Shown one piece after another: positions 22,617 through 36,119 of a stretch of DNA of 41,046 bases (position 1 is its first letter; the number at the start of each line of letters is the position of its first letter). The position numbers and the translations under genes were made by a program. The DNA lies in IMG/VR virus record IMGVR_UViG_3300037044_000222, positions 1 through 41,046 of that record; one strand, given 5' to 3'. The notes beneath the pieces were generated by a model. That model was not told where the DNA came from, made no database searches, and saw nothing but the letters and a program-made list of their open reading frames with translations. The stretch is from a virus. Taxonomy: Duplodnaviria; Caudoviricetes.

Positions 22617-23645
22617 TCACACATCCTCCCGGAATGGCAAAGCCATAGTGGTATTCATCTTGGGGTATGCTTTGTCAACCAGCCGTTTGAACTGTTCCCA
22701 GGCTGAGGCAGCTCGCATCAGCGCTATGATCCCACTTAGATGATCGCGCAGTTTGGGATGGCCAACGTCGGGCGTGAGCCATTGATGATGCTTGTGCTTT
22801 CGGTGGCCGGCCTCATCGGGTGGGTTGAGTCGTCGTAGTTCCTCAAGAACCCCAGGCGCAAGCCTGTCGTAGACCAAGTCGTTTGTATAGTGGCCTACAA
22901 CTGCAGGCCGATTAATCCTCATGCCTCGCCACTCCCAGTTCTTAAGGCGGAACATCTCACGGTAGAAATCATCCGGAAATCTCTTCGCCCACTTGGCAAG
23001 TTCTCTGCTTATAAAGGCGTCGAGAATTCTCTGCAGAGCAAGTCGATCACGGACCTCTTGGTATCCAGTGGCTTCATCAATTAAGGCGATTATGCCCACT
23101 GTCGCCAGCCCACGAATGATCGCCTCGGCAGCCAGGACCATGTGTCGCTGTGATGGGAGAATCACACCGGCTTTGTCAGCATCGACGTAAGCGTAGCACA
23201 CCATCGGCAGTATTTCGGCCTTGTAACCGAATGCCATAGACCCTCCCGACACTGGTTTGTAGGAAATCGGGTTCTTCGAAGCCATTAATTCCCTTGTAAT
23301 GAAAGGCTTGAGGTTCTTGGACGGCAGAAAAGGAGGGGGTTCTTCAGAACCCCACTCCTCCTCCATCGCGCGGGAGAGCGTCGTGCTTCCCTGTCCTGCT
23401 GCAGGTCGAATGGACCTCCCCAAGGCCTTGAGGAACGAGCTCTGGTTGATGACTCGCGTTCCGTCCTCAAGCACCGCGCACTCAATCGTAGCTTGACCGA
23501 TCTTGAGTGGTCCCGCGTGTGTAGCCTTTGGGAGGCTATGCCGTGCCCGAGCGGCTCGGCGAGCGATTTCGGATCGCTGCTCAGGCGTCAACGCTTCTGC
23601 CCGCGCCTTGCCGCCCATTGACTGAATCGAATCGTCAGTAAGCAT
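22617..23645 (-). CDS. P63C-domain protein
   Basis: GGKARAEALTPEQRSEIAR, ATHAG.L.IG..IECAVLEDGTRV, VGIIALIDEATGYQ, W.KRFP..FY, HHQWLT motifs; lower GC. Confidence 0.9.
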   Translation of the reverse strand: MLTDDSIQSMGGKARAEALTPEQRSEIARRAARARHSLPKATHAGPLKIGQATIECAVLEDGTRVINQSSFLKALGRSIRPAAGQGSTTLSRAMEEEWGSEEPPPFLPSKNLKPFITRELMASKNPISYKPVSGGSMAFGYKAEILPMVCYAYVDADKAGVILPSQRHMVLAAEAIIRGLATVGIIALIDEATGYQEVRDRLALQRILDAFISRELAKWAKRFPDDFYREMFRLKNWEWRGMRINRPAVVGHYTNDLVYDRLAPGVLEELRRLNPPDEAGHRKHKHHQWLTPDVGHPKLRDHLSGIIALMRAASAWEQFKRLVDKAYPKMNTTMALPFREDV

Positions 23646-25885: not shown

Positions 25886-26905
25886 TCAAGCGGCCACCGG
25901 CGGTTGCTCCGGGGTCGAAGGTTGGGGGGGAACCGGCGGCGGAACCGCCGGGGTGAAGAAGGGGGCCGGCCACTTCCGATCGAAGGTGTGGGCGGCATTG
26001 GTGACTTCTTCCTTGATGTTCGCGAACTGCTCGTGCGCCAGGCCGAACAGCCCGTAAGCCGGTTCACTGGAAGTCCCGCTCACCGACCACCGCAGCAGGT
26101 GCCACATCCGCTCGAGGGCCTCGACCGCCGTCTTGGTCCGCAGCCGGGGGGCGTCCGGCTTCCAGGGGCAGACCCGCTTGATCGCCTTGCACTTGCTCAC
26201 CAGCCCCAGCGCGGTGGCCACGTGGTGGAGGATCTTGTACTCGTTCAAGGTGGCCGCGAACGCGCGGAACTCGGCGCAGGGGGCCGCGTTGAGCAGCTTC
26301 TGGAAGTTGACCATCCCCCGCCCCGTGGACCGCACCAGTTCCACCACCCGTTCGCTCGGCGCTTTGGTCGCCTTGGCCAGGTTCTCGAAGGCCGGCTTGC
26401 TCAGCGGCAGGCAATAGTGGTTGCGGTGCCGGTCGGTGCCTGTCTGGGCGAAGATCGGCCAGGCGTTGTCGTGCGCGTTGCTCGCCAGGCGATAGGCGAA
26501 CTCGAGCAGTCCCTTGGGGTCGTTCGCGAGCCAGCCCAGGCCGACGGTGACGTGCAGCCCGCAGCTCGGGTTGACCCGGCCGCCGATGGCCACGATGAAC
26601 CGGACCATCTCGATCAGCGCCCGAATGCCCGCGTCGCCCTTGAGCCGGGGGCTGACGAACTCGCACGGCTGGTAGCCGCGAGGGACCGTGATGCTGGCGT
26701 CCCGGTCGGCCCGCCAGAGCTCCCCGTTGAAGGTGGGGGCATGGAGGACTTCGCCCGCCGGGGTGCGGCCCACGGTCACCCGGCTGCCCCGGTGGTAGCT
26801 CCCCACTTGAAGGCCACTGCTGTGCGGAATGACGGTCTCGATCTCGACCCCGAACTCGAGGAGGGCCGCCGTCTCATCTGGTGCTGCTAGCTTCCTTGGT
26901 TGCAT
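25886..26905 (-). CDS. Putative amidoligase (COOH-NH2 ligase type 2, Amidoligase_2)
   Basis: FGVEIET, DASI, EFVSPRL, NPSCGLHV, EFR motifs. Confidence 0.88.
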   Translation of the reverse strand: MQPRKLAAPDETAALLEFGVEIETVIPHSSGLQVGSYHRGSRVTVGRTPAGEVLHAPTFNGELWRADRDASITVPRGYQPCEFVSPRLKGDAGIRALIEMVRFIVAIGGRVNPSCGLHVTVGLGWLANDPKGLLEFAYRLASNAHDNAWPIFAQTGTDRHRNHYCLPLSKPAFENLAKATKAPSERVVELVRSTGRGMVNFQKLLNAAPCAEFRAFAATLNEYKILHHVATALGLVSKCKAIKRVCPWKPDAPRLRTKTAVEALERMWHLLRWSVSGTSSEPAYGLFGLAHEQFANIKEEVTNAAHTFDRKWPAPFFTPAVPPPVPPQPSTPEQPPVAA

Positions 26906-27091: not shown

Positions 27092-27772
27092 TCAGATCAG
27101 GGAAAGCTGCTGGGGCCGGCCCAACGCCGGCCCGGGAGCCGGCAAGGGGGCCTCCGCGTGCACCTGCCGCCGGATCGCCTCCCAACCGTCCCGGAGCACC
27201 AGCTTGCCCAGCTCATCATGCTGGCGGTAGTGCCCCGAAAGGAGAGTCACCAACGTGCGGCGCTCCCGGCCCTCCGGCGTGTGCGCGTCCAGGAAGACGG
27301 GCAGCATCCCGTGCCACTCGGCTTCATCGACCGTGCGCTGGGGCTGCGGCGGTTGCGGGAGCATCGCCAGCCAGGTCCAGAAGCAGTTGAGCGAACGTGG
27401 CGGCAGCCAGAGCTTGTACCGCTTGGCTTCCGCGTACAGCCGGCCCTGTTCGCTGCGCGCCCCGCGGACGGCGTGATACTCCAGCCCGCAGAACTGGGCG
27501 CTCATCCCGCGGCCGTGGTGGGTTTCCCGCCGGCACAGCGCGCCGTAGTCCCGGCGGGCGATCTCATCGAGGGCTCGGGCCAGCTCGCGCTGGGGCGGGA
27601 ACACGTCCTCGAACAGCCCGCAGATCAAGAGCGGCTTCATGCCCGAGGCCGTGAGCGCCCGCTCGGCCCGCGCCAACCCGGCCGGCCACCCCAGGCGCAG
27701 GGACTTCACCGCCACCGATTTCCAGGCCGCCTCCGACCAGCCTTCGGTGTCGCGCTTCTCCATCGTGTTCAT
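27092..27772 (-). CDS. Hypothetical helical protein with a C-terminal clamp-binding-like motif
   Basis: KS.AVKSLR.G, FED, LDAHT.EGR; ends in QQLSLI; ATGA-coupled. Confidence 0.7.
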   Translation of the reverse strand: MNTMEKRDTEGWSEAAWKSVAVKSLRLGWPAGLARAERALTASGMKPLLICGLFEDVFPPQRELARALDEIARRDYGALCRRETHHGRGMSAQFCGLEYHAVRGARSEQGRLYAEAKRYKLWLPPRSLNCFWTWLAMLPQPPQPQRTVDEAEWHGMLPVFLDAHTPEGRERRTLVTLLSGHYRQHDELGKLVLRDGWEAIRRQVHAEAPLPAPGPALGRPQQLSLI

Positions 27773-28152
27773 GCGATCTCCTCTCGTTGGGGGACACGGT
27801 ACTGCTTCGGGCACCGGGCCACGGCCTGGCACCGTTCCGGCAGCCCCCGCATCTGCGCCCGCTCCTGAGCCTGCCTGCGGGAACCTGCCCAGACGCGGCT
27901 CACGCAGATCCCGTCCACCAGGATGTCGAAGGCTTGGTCAGGCTTAAGGGATGCCTTCTTGGCCCGCGCCTGACGGATGGACTCAAACATGAGCGCCGCC
28001 CAGGTGGTGCCTGGCGGGAGCTTCAGCGGGTTCTGCCGGCGAGCACCCGACAGTGGCACGGGCCGCTCCGGGGTGGGGTTGAGCCATTCCCGGCTCAGCT
28101 CAACGGTGATGGTTGTCTCGGGCAGCTTCTGTTCTTTGCCTGTCTGGTTCAT
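27769..28152 (-). CDS. Hypothetical protein (127 aa)
   Basis: AAAGGA SD, downstream of promoter copy 2. Confidence 0.65.
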   Translation of the reverse strand: MNQTGKEQKLPETTITVELSREWLNPTPERPVPLSGARRQNPLKLPPGTTWAALMFESIRQARAKKASLKPDQAFDILVDGICVSRVWAGSRRQAQERAQMRGLPERCQAVARCPKQYRVPQREEIA

Positions 28153-28186
28153 CTTCTGTCCTTTCACTGTCCTGGTTGTTTCCACA

Positions 28187-28278
28187 GTTAAAAGGTATAC
28201 GCTGACGGCGTATAGTGACAATGGAAAAGGTGCCTGGCGCATCCGTTTGTTCCCAAGACTGGTAGGAGAGGCAGGTTA
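28187..28278 (-). promoter_or_regulatory. Promoter/operator module, copy 2
   Basis: TATACGCTGACGGCGTATA (28196-28214), GTGACAATGGAAAA, AGGCAGGTTA at 28269-28278. Confidence 0.75.
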
Positions 28279-28306
28279 CTATCCCTGAAACGACTCTCCT
28301 TACCTC

Positions 28307-29065
28307 TCAAAAGGTCCAGGGGAGGGCAATCGAGCGGGCACTGGGGTTGCGTTCCTGCTTGGTCGCCGTCCGGCTCCGCCGCTTGGGCACCACCGCCGCC
28401 CCGAAGTAGCGCTTGAGCAAGGCCGTCGCCCCTTCCTCGCCCCCGCCGGCCCGGAACTCCGCCATCCCGCCCCGCCCGGTGTACGTGTCCTTGAACCCGA
28501 ACGCGAAGCGGCCGTCCAACCAGGCATAGCGGTGGTGGTAGGCGTTGAGCAGACAGACCCAGTAGTCGTCCATCGGCAGCGTGCAGTCCTTCGGGAACCA
28601 GAGCTGGTGCCCCGCGAGGAACCCAATCGCCCCGGCCGGCGAGTACCCCCCGAACCGGAAGGGCCGGTGTTCCCGGTACGTCAACGGGTTGGCATGGCTG
28701 GCGAACCCGAAGAAGTGCGCCCCCAGTTGGCGGGCCGTGGCGGCGGCGTTCTGGATCACCTCGGCCGCCACCTCCGGCGGGGCAATCGCCGGCACCGGCG
28801 CCCCCCGGTAGCGCCAGACCCGGTAGAGCCCGATGCTGTCGTCATCGAGCTGGAAGTTGGAGGGGTACCGCTCGAGGACCCACTGCCGTTTGGCCGGCAG
28901 GCCCACCACGCTGTCGGGGTGGGTGAGGATCTGCTCGGGCGGATGGTGCCGGGCGTACGCGGCGGCCTGCGACTCGGGCACCAGCACCCGGGCGCCGGCG
29001 ACATGCCGGTGGGTCGTCACCCGGCCGGCCCGCTTGTGCGAGAGGATCAGGATCGGGATTTCCAT
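28307..29065 (-). CDS. GT-A fold glycosyltransferase of the TAGT/GREB1-like type
   Basis: ILSHKRA..VTT, V.ESQ..AY, RQWVL, QLDDD, DDYW.CL, GG.A..R motifs. Confidence 0.8.
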   Translation of the reverse strand: MEIPILILSHKRAGRVTTHRHVAGARVLVPESQAAAYARHHPPEQILTHPDSVVGLPAKRQWVLERYPSNFQLDDDSIGLYRVWRYRGAPVPAIAPPEVAAEVIQNAAATARQLGAHFFGFASHANPLTYREHRPFRFGGYSPAGAIGFLAGHQLWFPKDCTLPMDDYWVCLLNAYHHRYAWLDGRFAFGFKDTYTGRGGMAEFRAGGGEEGATALLKRYFGAAVVPKRRSRTATKQERNPSARSIALPWTF

Positions 29066-29841
29066 AGCGCGTGGAATCGGCGGAAGTCCAGGACCTGGGT
29101 CACACCCACCGTCCCCCGGCGGTCGAGCCCCTTCTGGAGGTCGAGCATCGTGCTCAGGGCTGCCCATTCCTGGCCGGTCCGGGTGAAGATCAGGACCCCG
29201 TTGTAAGCCTCGTCGATGGTCGGCACCAGTTCGTACACCCCGGCCGCCGGTTTGCCTTCCTCCTCCCCGGCCTCCAGGTCCCGCAGGATCGCCGCCATGC
29301 GTTCGGACACTCCGTCGGCTTCGAGCTGTTGGACCAGGGCGGCAAGCTGCTCCTCCCCGACCACCCCCAGCTCGGCCAGCTTGTTGTCCGCCAGCAGGTG
29401 AGCCAACTCGTCGGCCGGCGAGCCAAAGTCCTGGAACTCGACGGGCACCTGCTCGGCCCCGAGCGATTCCAGGGCGAGCAACTGGCCGTGGCCCACCACC
29501 AGGAACCCGCTGGCCTGCGAGATCACCAGCGGCCGGCGGATGCCCTGGAACCGCAGGATCTCGGCGAACAGGGCCACCTGCGGTTCGGGGTGCTTCTTGG
29601 GGTTCTGGGGATGCGGACGCACCTGGGCCGGCGGCATCAGCGTGTCGTAGCGGCAGCGGATCGGGATCGGACCGGCCGCTGCGACAATCGCGGTGACCGG
29701 GTGCGACACCCCCGCCGGAGTGTCGCACTTGGGCGCAGGCATCGGGGCGAGCGGCTGGACCTCGAGTTCAGGGCCGCCGGCATTGGCGGGAGCGGGCGTT
29801 CTGCCCCCCGCGGGGCGTGTGGGCTTCTTCGAGTTTTTCAT
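29047..29841 (-). CDS. ParB-N (ParB/Srx) domain protein
   Basis: PHPQNPKKH, G.RRPLVI, VVGHG, LLADNKLAE motifs. Confidence 0.88.
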   Translation of the reverse strand: MKNSKKPTRPAGGRTPAPANAGGPELEVQPLAPMPAPKCDTPAGVSHPVTAIVAAAGPIPIRCRYDTLMPPAQVRPHPQNPKKHPEPQVALFAEILRFQGIRRPLVISQASGFLVVGHGQLLALESLGAEQVPVEFQDFGSPADELAHLLADNKLAELGVVGEEQLAALVQQLEADGVSERMAAILRDLEAGEEEGKPAAGVYELVPTIDEAYNGVLIFTRTGQEWAALSTMLDLQKGLDRRGTVGVTQVLDFRRFHALWKSRS

Positions 29842-30334
29842 GGGACACCGTTTTTTCGGCCGTGGCGCGCGAAGTCAGGGATGGCTTTAACCCTGTCGTG
29901 GGGGGGCTGGCCAAAGAGATTTCCTCGGATGCGCCGCCGCCGTCCTTCCGCCAGTTCTTGGCCCGCTGCTGCGCGCGATTGCGCCACTCGGCCAGGCGCG
30001 ACATCTGGCCGGTGAGCTTGGCCATGTGCTCGGGCGTGACACCGCAGCGGCGGGCCAACTCCTTCACCGAGGGGCTCCCGGCGATGTTGCCCGGGTTCAG
30101 GGTCCAGGCCAGGGCGATGACCCGCAGGCCGACGATGTGGCGGACGGGGCGACCGTCGGGCAGCAGGGCCCGAAGCAGCCGGCTGAACGCGATCAGGGCC
30201 TTGGGACAGGCGCCGGGCTGCGGGGTGCCGTCGAGCCGTTCGTAGACCTCCTCGTAATCGAACTGGGCGCACCCAGCGCAGTCGGCCGGGTCGCAGTCGG
30301 GGTGCAGGCGGGTTTCGTCGAAGGGCGCTTTCAC
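29768..30334 (-). CDS. HTH protein, possible late-gene regulator
   Basis: GTGA-coupled start; SVKELARRCGVTPEHMAK helix-turn-helix. Confidence 0.6.
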   Translation of the reverse strand: MKAPFDETRLHPDCDPADCAGCAQFDYEEVYERLDGTPQPGACPKALIAFSRLLRALLPDGRPVRHIVGLRVIALAWTLNPGNIAGSPSVKELARRCGVTPEHMAKLTGQMSRLAEWRNRAQQRAKNWRKDGGGASEEISLASPPTTGLKPSLTSRATAEKTVSHEKLEEAHTPRGGQNARSRQCRRP

Positions 30335-30432
30335 TTGCGGCGACGGCGGGTCAGCAGCCACCAGCGCAGGGCGGTGGCGGTGACGGTGATCCGGAACCAG
30401 AGCCGGGACACGAGGCGACGCAGGGCATTCAT
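30331..30432 (-). CDS. Small basic/hydrophobic protein (33 aa)
   Basis: MNALRRLVSRLWFRITVTATALRWWLLTRRRRK; ATGA and GTGA overlaps on both sides. Confidence 0.6.
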   Translation of the reverse strand: MNALRRLVSRLWFRITVTATALRWWLLTRRRRK

Positions 30433-30821
30433 GGGCTGATCGAGACCACTACCCCCTCGGCCCCGCCGGTGGCAACCTGGGCGTACTCCCAGGCGACCTG
30501 GGCGTCGGCATCGTCGAGCCTGAGCCAGGCGGCGATGGCATCCCGGAGGTGCTTGCAGCCGGCGACGAGGTTGTCCCCGTCGGGCAGGAGACGGCGCCGG
30601 TGGACGACGAGCGTGACGGTGGGACGAGGCCGGCGACCGCCCGCGCCCATGCCCGCCGGGCAGCCTGGGCGTCGCGGTGGCTGCGGCTCCAGTGGGCCCC
30701 CAGGAGCCGGTTCAGCGACGGGGGCAGGTAGCCGACCCAGACGACGATGCGGCCGGGCCCAGGTTCCGGGGCTGACTTCGACATAGCCGAGGGCTTCGAG
30801 TTGAGGGCGGGTCAGGGTCAT
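30429..30821 (-). CDS. RusA-like Holliday junction resolvase, catalytic half
   Basis: DGDNLVAGCKHLRDAI....LDD motif. Confidence 0.75.
   Translation of the reverse strand: MTLTRPQLEALGYVEVSPGTWARPHRRLGRLPAPVAEPAPGGPLEPQPPRRPGCPAGMGAGGRRPRPTVTLVVHRRRLLPDGDNLVAGCKHLRDAIAAWLRLDDADAQVAWEYAQVATGGAEGVVVSISP
30449..30784 (-). CDS. Nested +1-frame ORF encoding a RusA-like N-terminal half
   Basis: IVVWVGYLPPSLNRLLGAHWSRSHR...RRAW; near-total G/C at third codon positions over about 30750-30625. Confidence 0.55.
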   Translation of the reverse strand: MSKSAPEPGPGRIVVWVGYLPPSLNRLLGAHWSRSHRDAQAARRAWARAVAGLVPPSRSSSTGAVSCPTGTTSSPAASTSGMPSPPGSGSTMPTPRSPGSTPRLPPAGPRG

Positions 30822-30830
30822 GGCGATGGC

Positions 30831-31442
30831 CTACGCCAGGGGGGCCATGTCCTCCTCGAGGTCCATGTCATCCAGGGGGTCATCGAGGGGCAGGAGGCCG
30901 GCCCGCGCGCGACGCCCCAGCTCGGCCAGCGCTTCCTCGTCGCTGACCGTGGCACGCAGTTGGTCCAGGGATTCGGTGGGGACCGCTCGGACGGTCAAAC
31001 CTTCGGCGGGCGGGTACATCACCAGGAGGGTCAGGCCGGCACCCGGCCCCGAGGTGATGGCGGGGCGAGCGCGCGCGCCGGCTCCAGGGTAGGCCCGGCG
31101 CAGGGCGACGCTGAGGCGAAGCTCGTCGATGACCTCGCGGTAGAACTGGGCTGCGAGCTCTTCGATGGGGGTGTCATGGCAGTCGGGAACAGGGTTCGTG
31201 TGCATGGTGACTCCGGGATGTTGGGTTTGAACGTTGAGGGGAGGGCGAAAGCGGGGATGGGTTGGGGGTAGGGGGCCAGCACCCTTGGCGTAAGTAAGTC
31301 CTCCTCCCTTTAGGGAGGACTTACTTACGCCGTGCTGGTGGCGAAAGGAAATAAGTATATTTGCCGCTTTTGCCGTAGCGGCGTAAGGCAGCACGGCACA
31401 AGTGGCTTTCACCGGTTTAGCGATGGGGTTTTGCCGGTTCAT
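30831..31442 (-). CDS. Hypothetical protein (alternative start at 31205)
   Basis: ATGA overlap with the primase stop; the C-terminal 124 aa are protein-like with an acidic tail. Confidence 0.55.
   Translation of the reverse strand: MNRQNPIAKPVKATCAVLPYAATAKAANILISFRHQHGVSKSSLKGGGLTYAKGAGPLPPTHPRFRPPLNVQTQHPGVTMHTNPVPDCHDTPIEELAAQFYREVIDELRLSVALRRAYPGAGARARPAITSGPGAGLTLLVMYPPAEGLTVRAVPTESLDQLRATVSDEEALAELGRRARAGLLPLDDPLDDMDLEEDMAPLA
31287..31331. other. 18-bp perfect inverted repeat, candidate replication origin
   Basis: GGCGTAAGTAAGTCCTCC-N9-GGAGGACTTACTTACGCC beside an AT-rich patch, just downstream of the primase-helicase. Confidence 0.6.
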
Positions 31443-33594: not shown

Positions 33595-33687
33595 TCAGAG
33601 CTCTCCCGGCCACAGCAGGGCCATCACCCCTCCCGCCACCACACCCAGCAGCAGGAGGACAAAGACCGCGAGGATCACGCTGCCCAT
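33595..33687 (-). CDS. 30-aa single-pass membrane peptide
   Basis: MGSVILAVFVLLLLGVVAGGVMALLWPGEL with GGAGG SD; fills the gap between neighbours. Confidence 0.65.
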   Translation of the reverse strand: MGSVILAVFVLLLLGVVAGGVMALLWPGEL

Positions 33688-36119
33688 GCCGGTTCCTCCC
33701 TTTCGACCCGCGTCTTGTGTGTCCCGCCGAAGTTCCGATCAAGGAACTCGCCCGCCTCGGCAAACGTGGCCGCGTACGGATCGGGGTGGCCCAGCTTTAC
33801 CAGCCACTTCACCTGCTTGGGCGTCGCCAGTCCCAGATCCCGCCGCGCGAAGAGGATCTCCAGGAGCTTGTTCGCATGCCCCTTGCAGGTCACCCGCTCC
33901 AGGCCAAAGCCCATCCGCTCCAACGCCGCCGCCTGCTTCGGGCTCACGGGCTCACGCTCCCAGGCCATGGTCGGTTCGTAGTCCAGCAACAGCGGGCTGC
34001 CCAGGCCGACCGCGAACTCGATGGCGTCCACCACCCGCATGTTGCGTTGGGCCTGCGCCGCCAGTTGCTCGGCCAGCTTCCGACGCCGCTCTTCGGTGGC
34101 CACCGCGTCCACTTCGAGCAGGTCCATCTGTTCACCCAGGGCGAGGACCTCGGTCATCGCCTGGTCCTGCTGCGGGGTCTGCGCAATCAGCCGGGCCGGC
34201 CGGATCAGGTCCATCGAGTCCGAGAGGAAGAGCGGATCGAGCACCAGCAGGTTCTCCTTCCCGGGGTGGATCCGCGTCCCTCGGCCGATCATCTGCGAGT
34301 AGAGGACCAGCGACTTGGTCGGCCGCAGCACCATGACGCAGTCCAGCGAGGGTTCGTCCCAGCCGGTGGTCAGCAGCGAGGCGTTGCAGATGATGTCCGC
34401 CCCCCGCCGCCGGAAGGTCTCCAACTCGCTCCGGTCCTCCCCATCCACATGCACCGCCCGTAGCCCGATCTCGCGGCAGGCCGCGACGAACCGCTTGCTG
34501 GTCTCGATCAGGGGCAGGAACACCACCGTCCGCCGGCCGCGCGCGTGCTCGGCCAGGATCTCGGCGCACTCGGCCAGGTGCGGCTCGATGGCATCACCCA
34601 GGTCCTCCTCTCGAAAGTCACCGCTGCGAGTCTTGACCGCGGACAAGTCCACTTGCACCGGCACCGACTGGATGACGATGCGGGCCAGGTAACCCTCCTT
34701 GATGAGTTCAACCAGGCTGATCTCGCACGGGATCGTCTGGTAAAAGGTCGCGAGCTGCTGTTTGTCCGAGCGGAACGGGGTGGCGGTGATCCCGATGACC
34801 TGGGCGGAGGCGAAGTGACCGAGCACGGCCTGCGCCTGGGTGCCGAGCGTATTCCGATGGCAGTTGTGGACAACAAACCCGTTGGCAACGTAGGTGTGCA
34901 GTCCTTCAACGGTCAGATTGAAGACCTCGACTTCACCGCTTCCAGCACCTGACTGGCAATGCTCAGCGGTGCCGCCAGCACCTCTCGGTTGGTAAACCTC
35001 AACAAGTACCACCCGCGCGACTCGAGGAACCCGACTTTCTTGGTATCCTGGGCGCGTCGGCTCCTGGCCTTGTGACTGGCGCCGTCCACCTCCACCGCCG
35101 TGCGTGTCACCGGATCGGCGAGGTCCAGTTTGTAGCAAGTCGGATAGCTGCAGCCGCGGGGCATCCTCGTCGGAACTGCATACTCCGTGCGCAAGCCCGT
35201 CAGCTCTGCCAAGAGCTTCTGGGCCCGCGTCGGACCGGTGCCATTCCCCCCACGAATCAGTGGTCGGTGCCCGATTTCCCGCAACCGGAGGCCAACCTTC
35301 TCCGCCACGCTGGGAGAGAACATCGGGTTGTGAACCTTCCGGTGCGCCGACATGAGCGCATTCTGGCAGTCGCGGGAACAGCACCACCGGGCGGTCGGAT
35401 TCCGCCTGTGCTGGGCTCGCTGGTTGGCGGTGGGAGCGAAGGGATTCCGACAATGATCGCACGTGACGCTCATCATAGACATAGATTTCATCTCCAGGTT
35501 CGATCAGGCCCGCCGGGGTCCAGCGGCACCGCGAAGGGCCGGTCTCCTGGACCACGGCAAAGGGATGGTTGATCGTTGCGGTCACAGTGAGTCCGCACGC
35601 CGTTCGCACCTTGACGAGCCGATCAACCGACGTGCGCTGGCGGATCACTCTCCGGATGCGCCGCCGCTCCATCGACCCGGTCGTCTCATTCCACGAGTCA
35701 ACGAGGTCTCCCGCACGGAGTGTCTCGATGGGCCTGCCATCCACACGCGTGCCCGCCGGAAAACACTCATCGACGATGACCAGGCTGAAGTAGTCCCGCG
35801 GCCATTTACCCAGACGTCGGGCCAGGCTCTGGGTCGTGGCCACCACCAGGCGGTCCCCTGGCTGGGCGTGTTCCTCCGCCATCTCGACCTGCGGGATCAC
35901 GCCGGCCCAGATCCCCAGCTTGTCGGCGGCCTGTTTGACCAACTCCTGCGCGTCGGCCAGGAACAGCACCGGACCAAAGGGCAGACACCGCCGGCAGATC
36001 TCGCCGGAAACTACGGTTTTCCCAGATCCGGTGGGGGCCACGCCCAGCACCCGGTCGAACTCGACCAAGGCGCCGAGCATGGCGTCCACGAAGCGGGGCT
36101 GGTAGGGACGGAGCTTCAC
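33675..36119 (-). CDS. SF2 DExH-box helicase precursor containing an intein
   Basis: LRPYQ, APTGSGKT, DE|CH after splicing, TATP, LTTGWDEP, QMIGRGTR motifs. Confidence 0.95.
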   Translation of the reverse strand: MKLRPYQPRFVDAMLGALVEFDRVLGVAPTGSGKTVVSGEICRRCLPFGPVLFLADAQELVKQAADKLGIWAGVIPQVEMAEEHAQPGDRLVVATTQSLARRLGKWPRDYFSLVIVDECFPAGTRVDGRPIETLRAGDLVDSWNETTGSMERRRIRRVIRQRTSVDRLVKVRTACGLTVTATINHPFAVVQETGPSRCRWTPAGLIEPGDEIYVYDERHVRSLSESLRSHRQPASPAQAESDRPVVLFPRLPECAHVGAPEGSQPDVLSQRGGEGWPPVAGNRAPTTDSWGEWHRSDAGPEALGRADGLAHGVCSSDEDAPRLQLSDLLQTGPRRSGDTHGGGGGRRQSQGQEPTRPGYQESRVPRVARVVLVEVYQPRGAGGTAEHCQSGAGSGEVEVFNLTVEGLHTYVANGFVVHNCHRNTLGTQAQAVLGHFASAQVIGITATPFRSDKQQLATFYQTIPCEISLVELIKEGYLARIVIQSVPVQVDLSAVKTRSGDFREEDLGDAIEPHLAECAEILAEHARGRRTVVFLPLIETSKRFVAACREIGLRAVHVDGEDRSELETFRRRGADIICNASLLTTGWDEPSLDCVMVLRPTKSLVLYSQMIGRGTRIHPGKENLLVLDPLFLSDSMDLIRPARLIAQTPQQDQAMTEVLALGEQMDLLEVDAVATEERRRKLAEQLAAQAQRNMRVVDAIEFAVGLGSPLLLDYEPTMAWEREPVSPKQAAALERMGFGLERVTCKGHANKLLEILFARRDLGLATPKQVKWLVKLGHPDPYAATFAEAGEFLDRNFGGTHKTRVEREEPAWAA
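34863..35765 (-). mobile_element. Intein (301 aa) inserted in helicase motif II
   Basis: Block A CFPAGTRV, block B TINHPF, block F/G VFNLTVEGLHTYVANGFVVHN followed by Cys+1. Confidence 0.95.
34913..35491 (-). CDS. Zn-finger + Vsr/DUF559-type endonuclease nested in the intein in the +1 frame
   Basis: CDHC...CCSRDC, NPM motif, YKLDLA...AVEVDGASH...D..K..FLESRGW.LLRFTN.EV; GGAG 9 nt before the ATG at 35482. Confidence 0.88.
   Translation of the reverse strand: MKSMSMMSVTCDHCRNPFAPTANQRAQHRRNPTARWCCSRDCQNALMSAHRKVHNPMFSPSVAEKVGLRLREIGHRPLIRGGNGTGPTRAQKLLAELTGLRTEYAVPTRMPRGCSYPTCYKLDLADPVTRTAVEVDGASHKARSRRAQDTKKVGFLESRGWYLLRFTNREVLAAPLSIASQVLEAVKSRSSI

Follow-up and report, generated by a model that had tools for sequence, protein, structure and literature searches.

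The window analysed here is a whole virus record of 41,046 bases (67% GC). Its genes include those for an integrase, a terminase, major head and major tail proteins and a tape-measure protein, and from this gene content the virus was judged to be a temperate tailed phage. A split RusA-like locus lies on the minus strand downstream of genes for a Sak4-like annealing protein, an exonuclease, a helicase and a primase; a profile search of the 41,046-base window returned no second RusA-like region. The phage likely has its host in the phylum Verrucomicrobiota, since the closest protein (88%) came from a Verrucomicrobia MAG and the named genomes carrying split loci were mostly Verrucomicrobiota MAGs. 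Elsewhere on the minus strand, a ParB-like gene, a TET-associated glycosyltransferase (PF20691, E 1e-6) and an uncharacterised 246-aa ORF adjoin (27092-29841), possibly as a DNA modification module. An amidoligase-like gene (phrog_2443) lies at 25886-26905 (minus strand) and, beside it, an Ant-like gene at 22617-23645.

Two ORFs of 130 and 111 aa, offset by +1, were found at the split locus, as the preliminary description had them; both lie within one stretch of 393 bases. The frame-0 ORF (30429-30821, minus strand), referred to as chain B, encodes a short leader and a Pro/Arg/Gly shadow linker, followed by RusA strand 2, an Arg loop, D81-x-D83-N84, K90, helix 2, D103-D104 and strands 3 and 4; the first Asp of DxDN lies at 30581-30579. 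Its TGA overlaps the ATG of the next gene (ATGA), a small basic, hydrophobic ORF of about 33 aa (30332-30432, minus strand) that is thereby coupled to the chain B stop. The +1 ORF (30449-30784, minus strand), referred to as chain A, begins at its own ATG (30784-30782), upstream of which the +1 frame is closed by in-frame TGA codons at 30820-30818 and 30814-30812, and ends at a TAG (30451-30449) 43 codons past the catalytic Asp (D+43). Its working core (30620-30751, minus strand), defined by profile matches and strain silent sites, holds strand 1, PPSLN (Asn at 30712-30710), HW and helix 1. The remaining Ser/Thr/Pro tail (30449-30619, minus strand) is unconserved, shadows the catalytic half and is stop-free across the family.

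GC content by codon position reproduced the third-position bias switch between frames that had been noted earlier: in B codons 14-66 it was 0.87-0.93 at B position 1, which is the third position of A, against 0.61-0.67 at B position 3, and in B codons 67-130 the latter position had 0.90-0.93. The lack of a canonical slippery heptamer at the junction also held, with no X XXY YYZ found before strand 2 in the window. The open +1 frame of the window alone was not significant (p about 0.34 by synonymous recoding) and could be due to chance, so the case rests on relatives.

Relatives were collected with a DNA pattern of S-L-N followed 90-120 bases later by L-D-x-D-N-L in any frame. This dual-frame pattern occurred at 120 viral loci (about 210 estimated), with 76 at an Asn-to-Asp spacing of 101 nt and 92 in the +1 class. 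Widening the gap to 121-151 yielded 59 loci, including 24 distinct ones judged RusA-like by eye, all in frame; scans seeded with proteins recovered loci of both kinds, split and in-frame. A profile from the 24 in-frame loci placed the catalytic half in 203 loci (118 split, 72 in frame and 13 without an Asn anchor, which were dropped). After loci had been dereplicated at 80% and three mis-anchored ones (L262, L268 and L049) excluded, 47 split and 45 in-frame loci remained. Asn-to-Asp spacing was 98-131 nt in the former and 129-171 nt in the latter, and mean GC was 0.56 in both.

Both frames were open across the split set, which was collected by motifs and whose loci share ancestry, so that the nulls given here overstate independence. 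The +1 frame was open over strand 2 in 47/47 split loci (11.9 expected; 16/45 in the in-frame control) and for 20 codons past the Asp in 46/47 (13.7 expected; 12/45 in the control). Between D and D+40, 11 stops were counted in the +1 frame against about 113 expected, compared with 124 against 130 in the control, and stops returned to the expected rate by strand 4. Frame 0 was open over the N-terminal half in 47/47 split loci (21.6 expected), as it was in 21/45 control loci, where 13.6 were expected and the null therefore underestimates openness of the -1 shadow frame. A +1 frame that proved unconserved or closed in homologs had been proposed beforehand as a refutation of the overlap; the frame is conserved and open in relatives.

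Several observations were made on individual relatives. At three loci (L232, L126 and L054) the order of starts is reversed, with chain A first and chain B starting inside strand 1; chain B still begins well before strand 2. In one locus (L079) part of the catalytic segment is repeated in tandem immediately upstream of the split gene, and this holds for both frames; gene overlap can arise by duplication, among other routes. Four proteins (P0044, P0074, P0130 and P0008) switch between chain A and chain B sequence after the catalytic motif, and are probably indel errors or frameshift-aware gene calls. A limited database query did not find the main split type in any cultured phage.

Searches of Pfam, PHROG and the PDB with the window ORFs and halves gave no direct RusA match, and PF05866 matched neither ORF nor either half. 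This model is weak for the group, matching only 4/43 in-frame relatives at E<0.01. Chain A alone returned no match in a protein search, the chain-A profile found nothing relevant in the PDB, and the chain-B profile reached 1q8r only at E 0.35. Profile searching of each ORF, as had been suggested, thus gave no direct link to RusA and an indirect one through the relatives. The profile of in-frame relatives (43 aligned) matched 1q8r at E 2.8e-5, and a predicted model of one in-frame relative superposed on 1q8r with Z 8.9 (rmsd 3.7, 104 residues), in agreement with the RusA fold of a four-stranded sheet and two helices. The chain-A profile matched positions 2-44 of the in-frame profile (97.4%, E 1.2e-11), in keeping with the resemblance to the RusA N-terminal half first noted in the +1 frame, and a profile built only from in-frame relatives found the chain A core in the window at E 2.7e-4. 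The chain-B profile matched positions 53-121 (99.7%). The in-frame profile also located the catalytic half within chain B of the window (30432-30629, minus strand; E 5.8e-17), confirming that the 130-aa ORF carries it, and phrog_34 was matched by 36/47 chain-B halves. Chain B alone was modelled with pLDDT 92.6; its best structural match was 1q8r residues 52-116 (Z 4.7), top-ranked but tied with unrelated folds, and Foldseek returned nothing for the model at E<=0.001.

The catalytic residues of E. coli RusA are D70, D72, N73, K76 and D90/D91, and S13 and N15 contact DNA (PMC1636454). The catalytic set aligned to D81, D83, N84, K90 and D103/D104 of chain B, so that all catalytic residues lie in chain B and the DNA-touching S13/N15 region lies in chain A. 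The residues D, D, N, K, D and D were invariant in 47/47 chain-B halves, as were P, S and N in 47/47 chain A cores, the latter partly because loci were found by motif. An Arg-rich loop precedes the first Asp (R75-R77 in chain B of the window), but the exact R69 position is not Arg: it is Pro in the window and Leu in most relatives. Three residues are inserted between the catalytic Asn and Lys relative to E. coli RusA.

The split locus was judged from its sequence to be real and conserved, and not an assembly error. A single-base error near 30625 had been raised as a refutation, and no junction indel was found in independent assemblies: contigs from two other studies covered 30447-31300 with 57 substitutions and 0 gaps and 30437-31300 with 55 substitutions and 0 gaps. 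One contig spanning 30000-31300 had 0 differences and may be the source of the window itself, and two low-depth short contigs carried indels at 30764/30773, upstream of strand 1. Among the 40 of 79 strain differences listed, 17/27 in the A core left A unchanged, each of these 17 altering B; 6/9 in the B core were silent in B, and none created a stop in either frame. Silent sites of the strain variants switched frame near 30625. That open shadow frames are likely in GC-rich DNA speaks, for the window alone, in favour of a pseudogene or an assembly error; the junction without indels, together with an unvarying frame offset and purifying selection acting on each frame at 47 distinct loci, leaves this explanation with next to no likelihood.

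Start codons were found for both ORFs. A +1 ATG was present at 40/47 split loci (13.8 and 9.0 expected under two nulls), any +1 start codon at 46/47, and a frame-0 start upstream at 47/47; some loci have tandem starts such as GTGAATG. A 4-nt SD-like motif preceded the chain-A ATG in only 6/40. The chain B stop was coupled to the next gene in 20/42 split and 20/44 in-frame loci, after loci that were too short had been left out (5/47 split and 1/45 in-frame). One RNA run with a small share yielded 0 contigs. In three loci frame 0 is closed 12-13 codons ahead of the Asn (within strand 1 or immediately before it, upstream of PSLN), so that chain A cannot be fed from chain B there.

The relation of helix 1 to strand 2 was scored in 41/47 loci, leaving out 6 without an HW anchor. 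In 40/41 of these loci the start of strand 2 fell within helix 1, at index 11-19 after HW; the exception was the window. The overlapped part of the helix scored better on the in-frame matrix than stop-free recodings did in 39/41 (mean z 2.3), and alignment columns show Ala-Leu-Leu-Ser-Ala-Leu encoded beneath strand 2. With helix 1 and strand 2 on the same bases, one ribosome pass would be unable to read both.

The locus is therefore best read as two overlapping genes, each encoding half of a RusA-like Holliday-junction resolvase, whose products are likely translated separately and would assemble. This was one of two explanations offered in the preliminary description, and the comparative data, with both frames open in relatives, favour it. 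The other, that recoding joins the halves, is disfavoured for the family, while the geometry of the window alone would permit a -1 fusion. Under such recoding, a ribosome starting at the +1 ATG would undergo a programmed -1 shift near 30630 to frame 0 and make a full-length RusA, possibly in the window subgroup only or beside separate chains. Consistent with this, the halves of the window are colinear without overlap, at 131 nt against 129-138 nt in compact in-frame relatives; silent sites switch near 30625; and chain A stops early, at D+8, in the nearest relatives (L243-L246). The slippery heptamer is missing from the window and present in 1/47 split loci, and neither frame has stops on either side of the junction. 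A shift would also remove half of helix 1 or strand 2 in 40/41 loci, and it leaves unaccounted for both the frame-0 start and upstream openness (47/47) and the openness of the +1 frame to D+40, some 40 codons beyond any useful shift site. Deleted-profile-column scores of conceptual -1 fusions were noisy from local trimming and were not used. Overall, programmed frameshifting was considered improbable.

A full-length single chain would also result if ribosomes read frame 0, then +1, and then slipped back about 50 nt to strand 2. The open frame 0 from an upstream start in 47/47 loci would suit this double recoding, but no conserved signal or take-off/landing repeat was found, frame 0 is closed within or immediately ahead of strand 1 in three loci, and the +1 ATG enrichment and open tail would be left unaccounted for. 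We know of no precedent for backward bypass and regard this route as very unlikely.

If both chains are made, chain A could instead be a regulator, an antidote or a protein with a role of its own, and chain B could work alone, for example as a half-domain oligomer. The confident model of chain B, which holds all catalytic residues, is compatible with such an arrangement, as is the long tail of chain A, which lacks an explanation and is basic in many relatives. Chain A nonetheless keeps the exact RusA N-half pattern, including the equivalents of the DNA-contacting S13/N15 (PMC1636454); it is present at every split locus with upstream DNA scored, and natural in-frame forms bear both parts. An independent role for chain A was accordingly rated unlikely.

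Under the favoured reading of two assembling halves, chain A and chain B would each be translated from their own start codons. Chain A (+1) would supply strand 1, the PSxN turn, a loop and helix 1, and chain B (frame 0) strand 2 with the Arg loop, the catalytic set Asp/Asp/Asn/Lys/Asp, and helix 2 along with strands 3-4. The two would assemble into one RusA subunit and, because RusA, whose symmetric junction cleavage depends on Mg, is a dimer, the enzyme is proposed to be A2B2. We infer translation of both ORFs, assembly and activity, with a putative role in resolving branched DNA when the phage genome is replicated, recombined or packaged.

The window has the longest Asn-to-Asp spacing of the 47 split loci (131 nt, against 101 in most relatives), and helix 1 ends before strand 2 starts. 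Its spacing falls within the in-frame range (shortest 129) and within one or two codons of the compact in-frame relatives: Bcep22 gp23 at 129, Mx8 p24 at 135 and several at 138. Among cultured phages, the catalytic half is closest to gp23 of Burkholderia phage Bcep22 and p24 of Myxococcus phage Mx8 (45-46% identity), which, unlike the window, have both halves in one frame. The window and the compact in-frame relatives fell on the same branch of a quick tree (SH-aLRT 91, unstarred). Only in the window would the geometry suit a -1 fusion; against a shift there are its own chain A ATG, a frame 0 open from the conserved leader and a family-like +1 stop at D+43. The window looks like the form left by loss of one base from the linker of a compact gene, before further deletions would slide the helix onto the strand. 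The quick tree, which does not give the direction, has 3 changes of split/in-frame state. The split state may have a single origin; split rows also occur outside the Bcep22/Mx8 branch, which would mean re-fusion. One natural in-frame protein (P0129) has a split-type N-half, the full helix, a linker and strand 2. A further protein (P0005, protein sequence only) carries 20 additional frame-0 codons in the linker.

Complementation alone does not account for the long, open chain A tail. Chain A extends a median of 80 residues past the Asn, and no conserved residues were found in the tail across relatives; Lys/Arg were only slightly raised (215 vs 194) and hydrophobics lowered. Coupling of the chain A stop to the next gene was rejected (2/42), as was a late -1 shift adding strand 4 to chain A (heptamer in 1/47). 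The ribosome exit tunnel holds 30-40 residues. Because the roughly 50 codons after helix 1 slightly exceed this capacity, our preferred guess is that the tail tethers chain A for co-translational hand-over to chain B, with stability or mRNA protection as alternatives. Early chain A stops in L243-L246 (D+8), L001 (D+21) and L163 (D+27) weaken the tether idea. Tentatively, the locus might belong to a widespread phage family in which the halves slid over each other in two frames to give an obligate A2B2 enzyme, the tail tethering chain A to the ribosome for hand-over on the same mRNA, and in which the window stands near the first step or the last step back.

A second nested +1 layout occurs in the same phage. 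An intein recognised from sequence features (Cys...His-Asn; 34863-35765, minus strand) interrupts the helicase gene (33675-36119) and contains a nested +1 ORF (34913-35491, minus strand) with a DUF559 endonuclease domain (E 3e-9), a GC3 of 0.77 and GGAG before a cluster of ATG codons. The endonuclease (Vsr-like) is preceded by a Cys-rich segment, and sequence searches returned no relatives. This nested ORF suggests that nested starts may be usable in the host of the phage. Out-of-frame homing endonucleases in inteins have been described (bioRxiv 10.64898/2026.09.14.751524), with the same nested layout as the helicase intein here; those found were of LAGLIDADG or HNH types, and that of the window is of DUF559 type. 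The parallel drawn earlier between the intein and the resolvase stands for the +1 nesting and not for the product: the intein ORF would encode a free-standing, selfish nuclease independent of its host protein, whereas chain A would be half of an enzyme.

The split locus offers a small natural test system for dual coding from a single gene, nested start choice and co-translational assembly. It also bears on annotation: "hypothetical proteins" of phages number in the hundreds (501 clusters resembling chain A at E<0.001) that are annotated as just one resolvase half. Of the 150 database proteins best matching chain A, 146 lacked the catalytic half; gene callers have thus often recorded chain A by itself, which points to two chains, although these are gene predictions and do not report expression. 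Overlaps usually combine an old gene with one newly overprinted on it; in this locus each frame holds ancient parts of the same enzyme. In the literature covered on RusA and overlap, with few subscription papers, no paper described overprinted halves of an enzyme domain. Nested +1 partner genes (Rz/Rz1, PMC6139136) and RusA are already known, and overprinted halves of one domain are apparently new.

E. coli RusA (PDB 1Q8R, 2H8C, 2H8E; PF05866; PHROGs 34 and 1682) has the same elements in the same order, but as one chain in one frame; the split locus places the halves in different frames on shared bases, and each chain carries extra shadow sequence. Its product would function like RusA without being a single polypeptide, and if obligate co-translational assembly is true it would be more than a RusA variant. 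A similar layout is that of the Rz/Rz1 spanins of lambda, in which a gene embedded in the +1 frame encodes a product that complexes with that of its host gene, the nested gene being missed by gene callers (PMC6139136) and the complex being a heterotetramer (PMC5295617). Like Rz1, chain A is a nested out-of-frame gene with its own start and under selection. Rz and Rz1 are two different membrane proteins, whereas the split RusA encodes on shared bases two folded elements of one domain, the halves of a globular enzyme that has single-chain homologues read in one frame.
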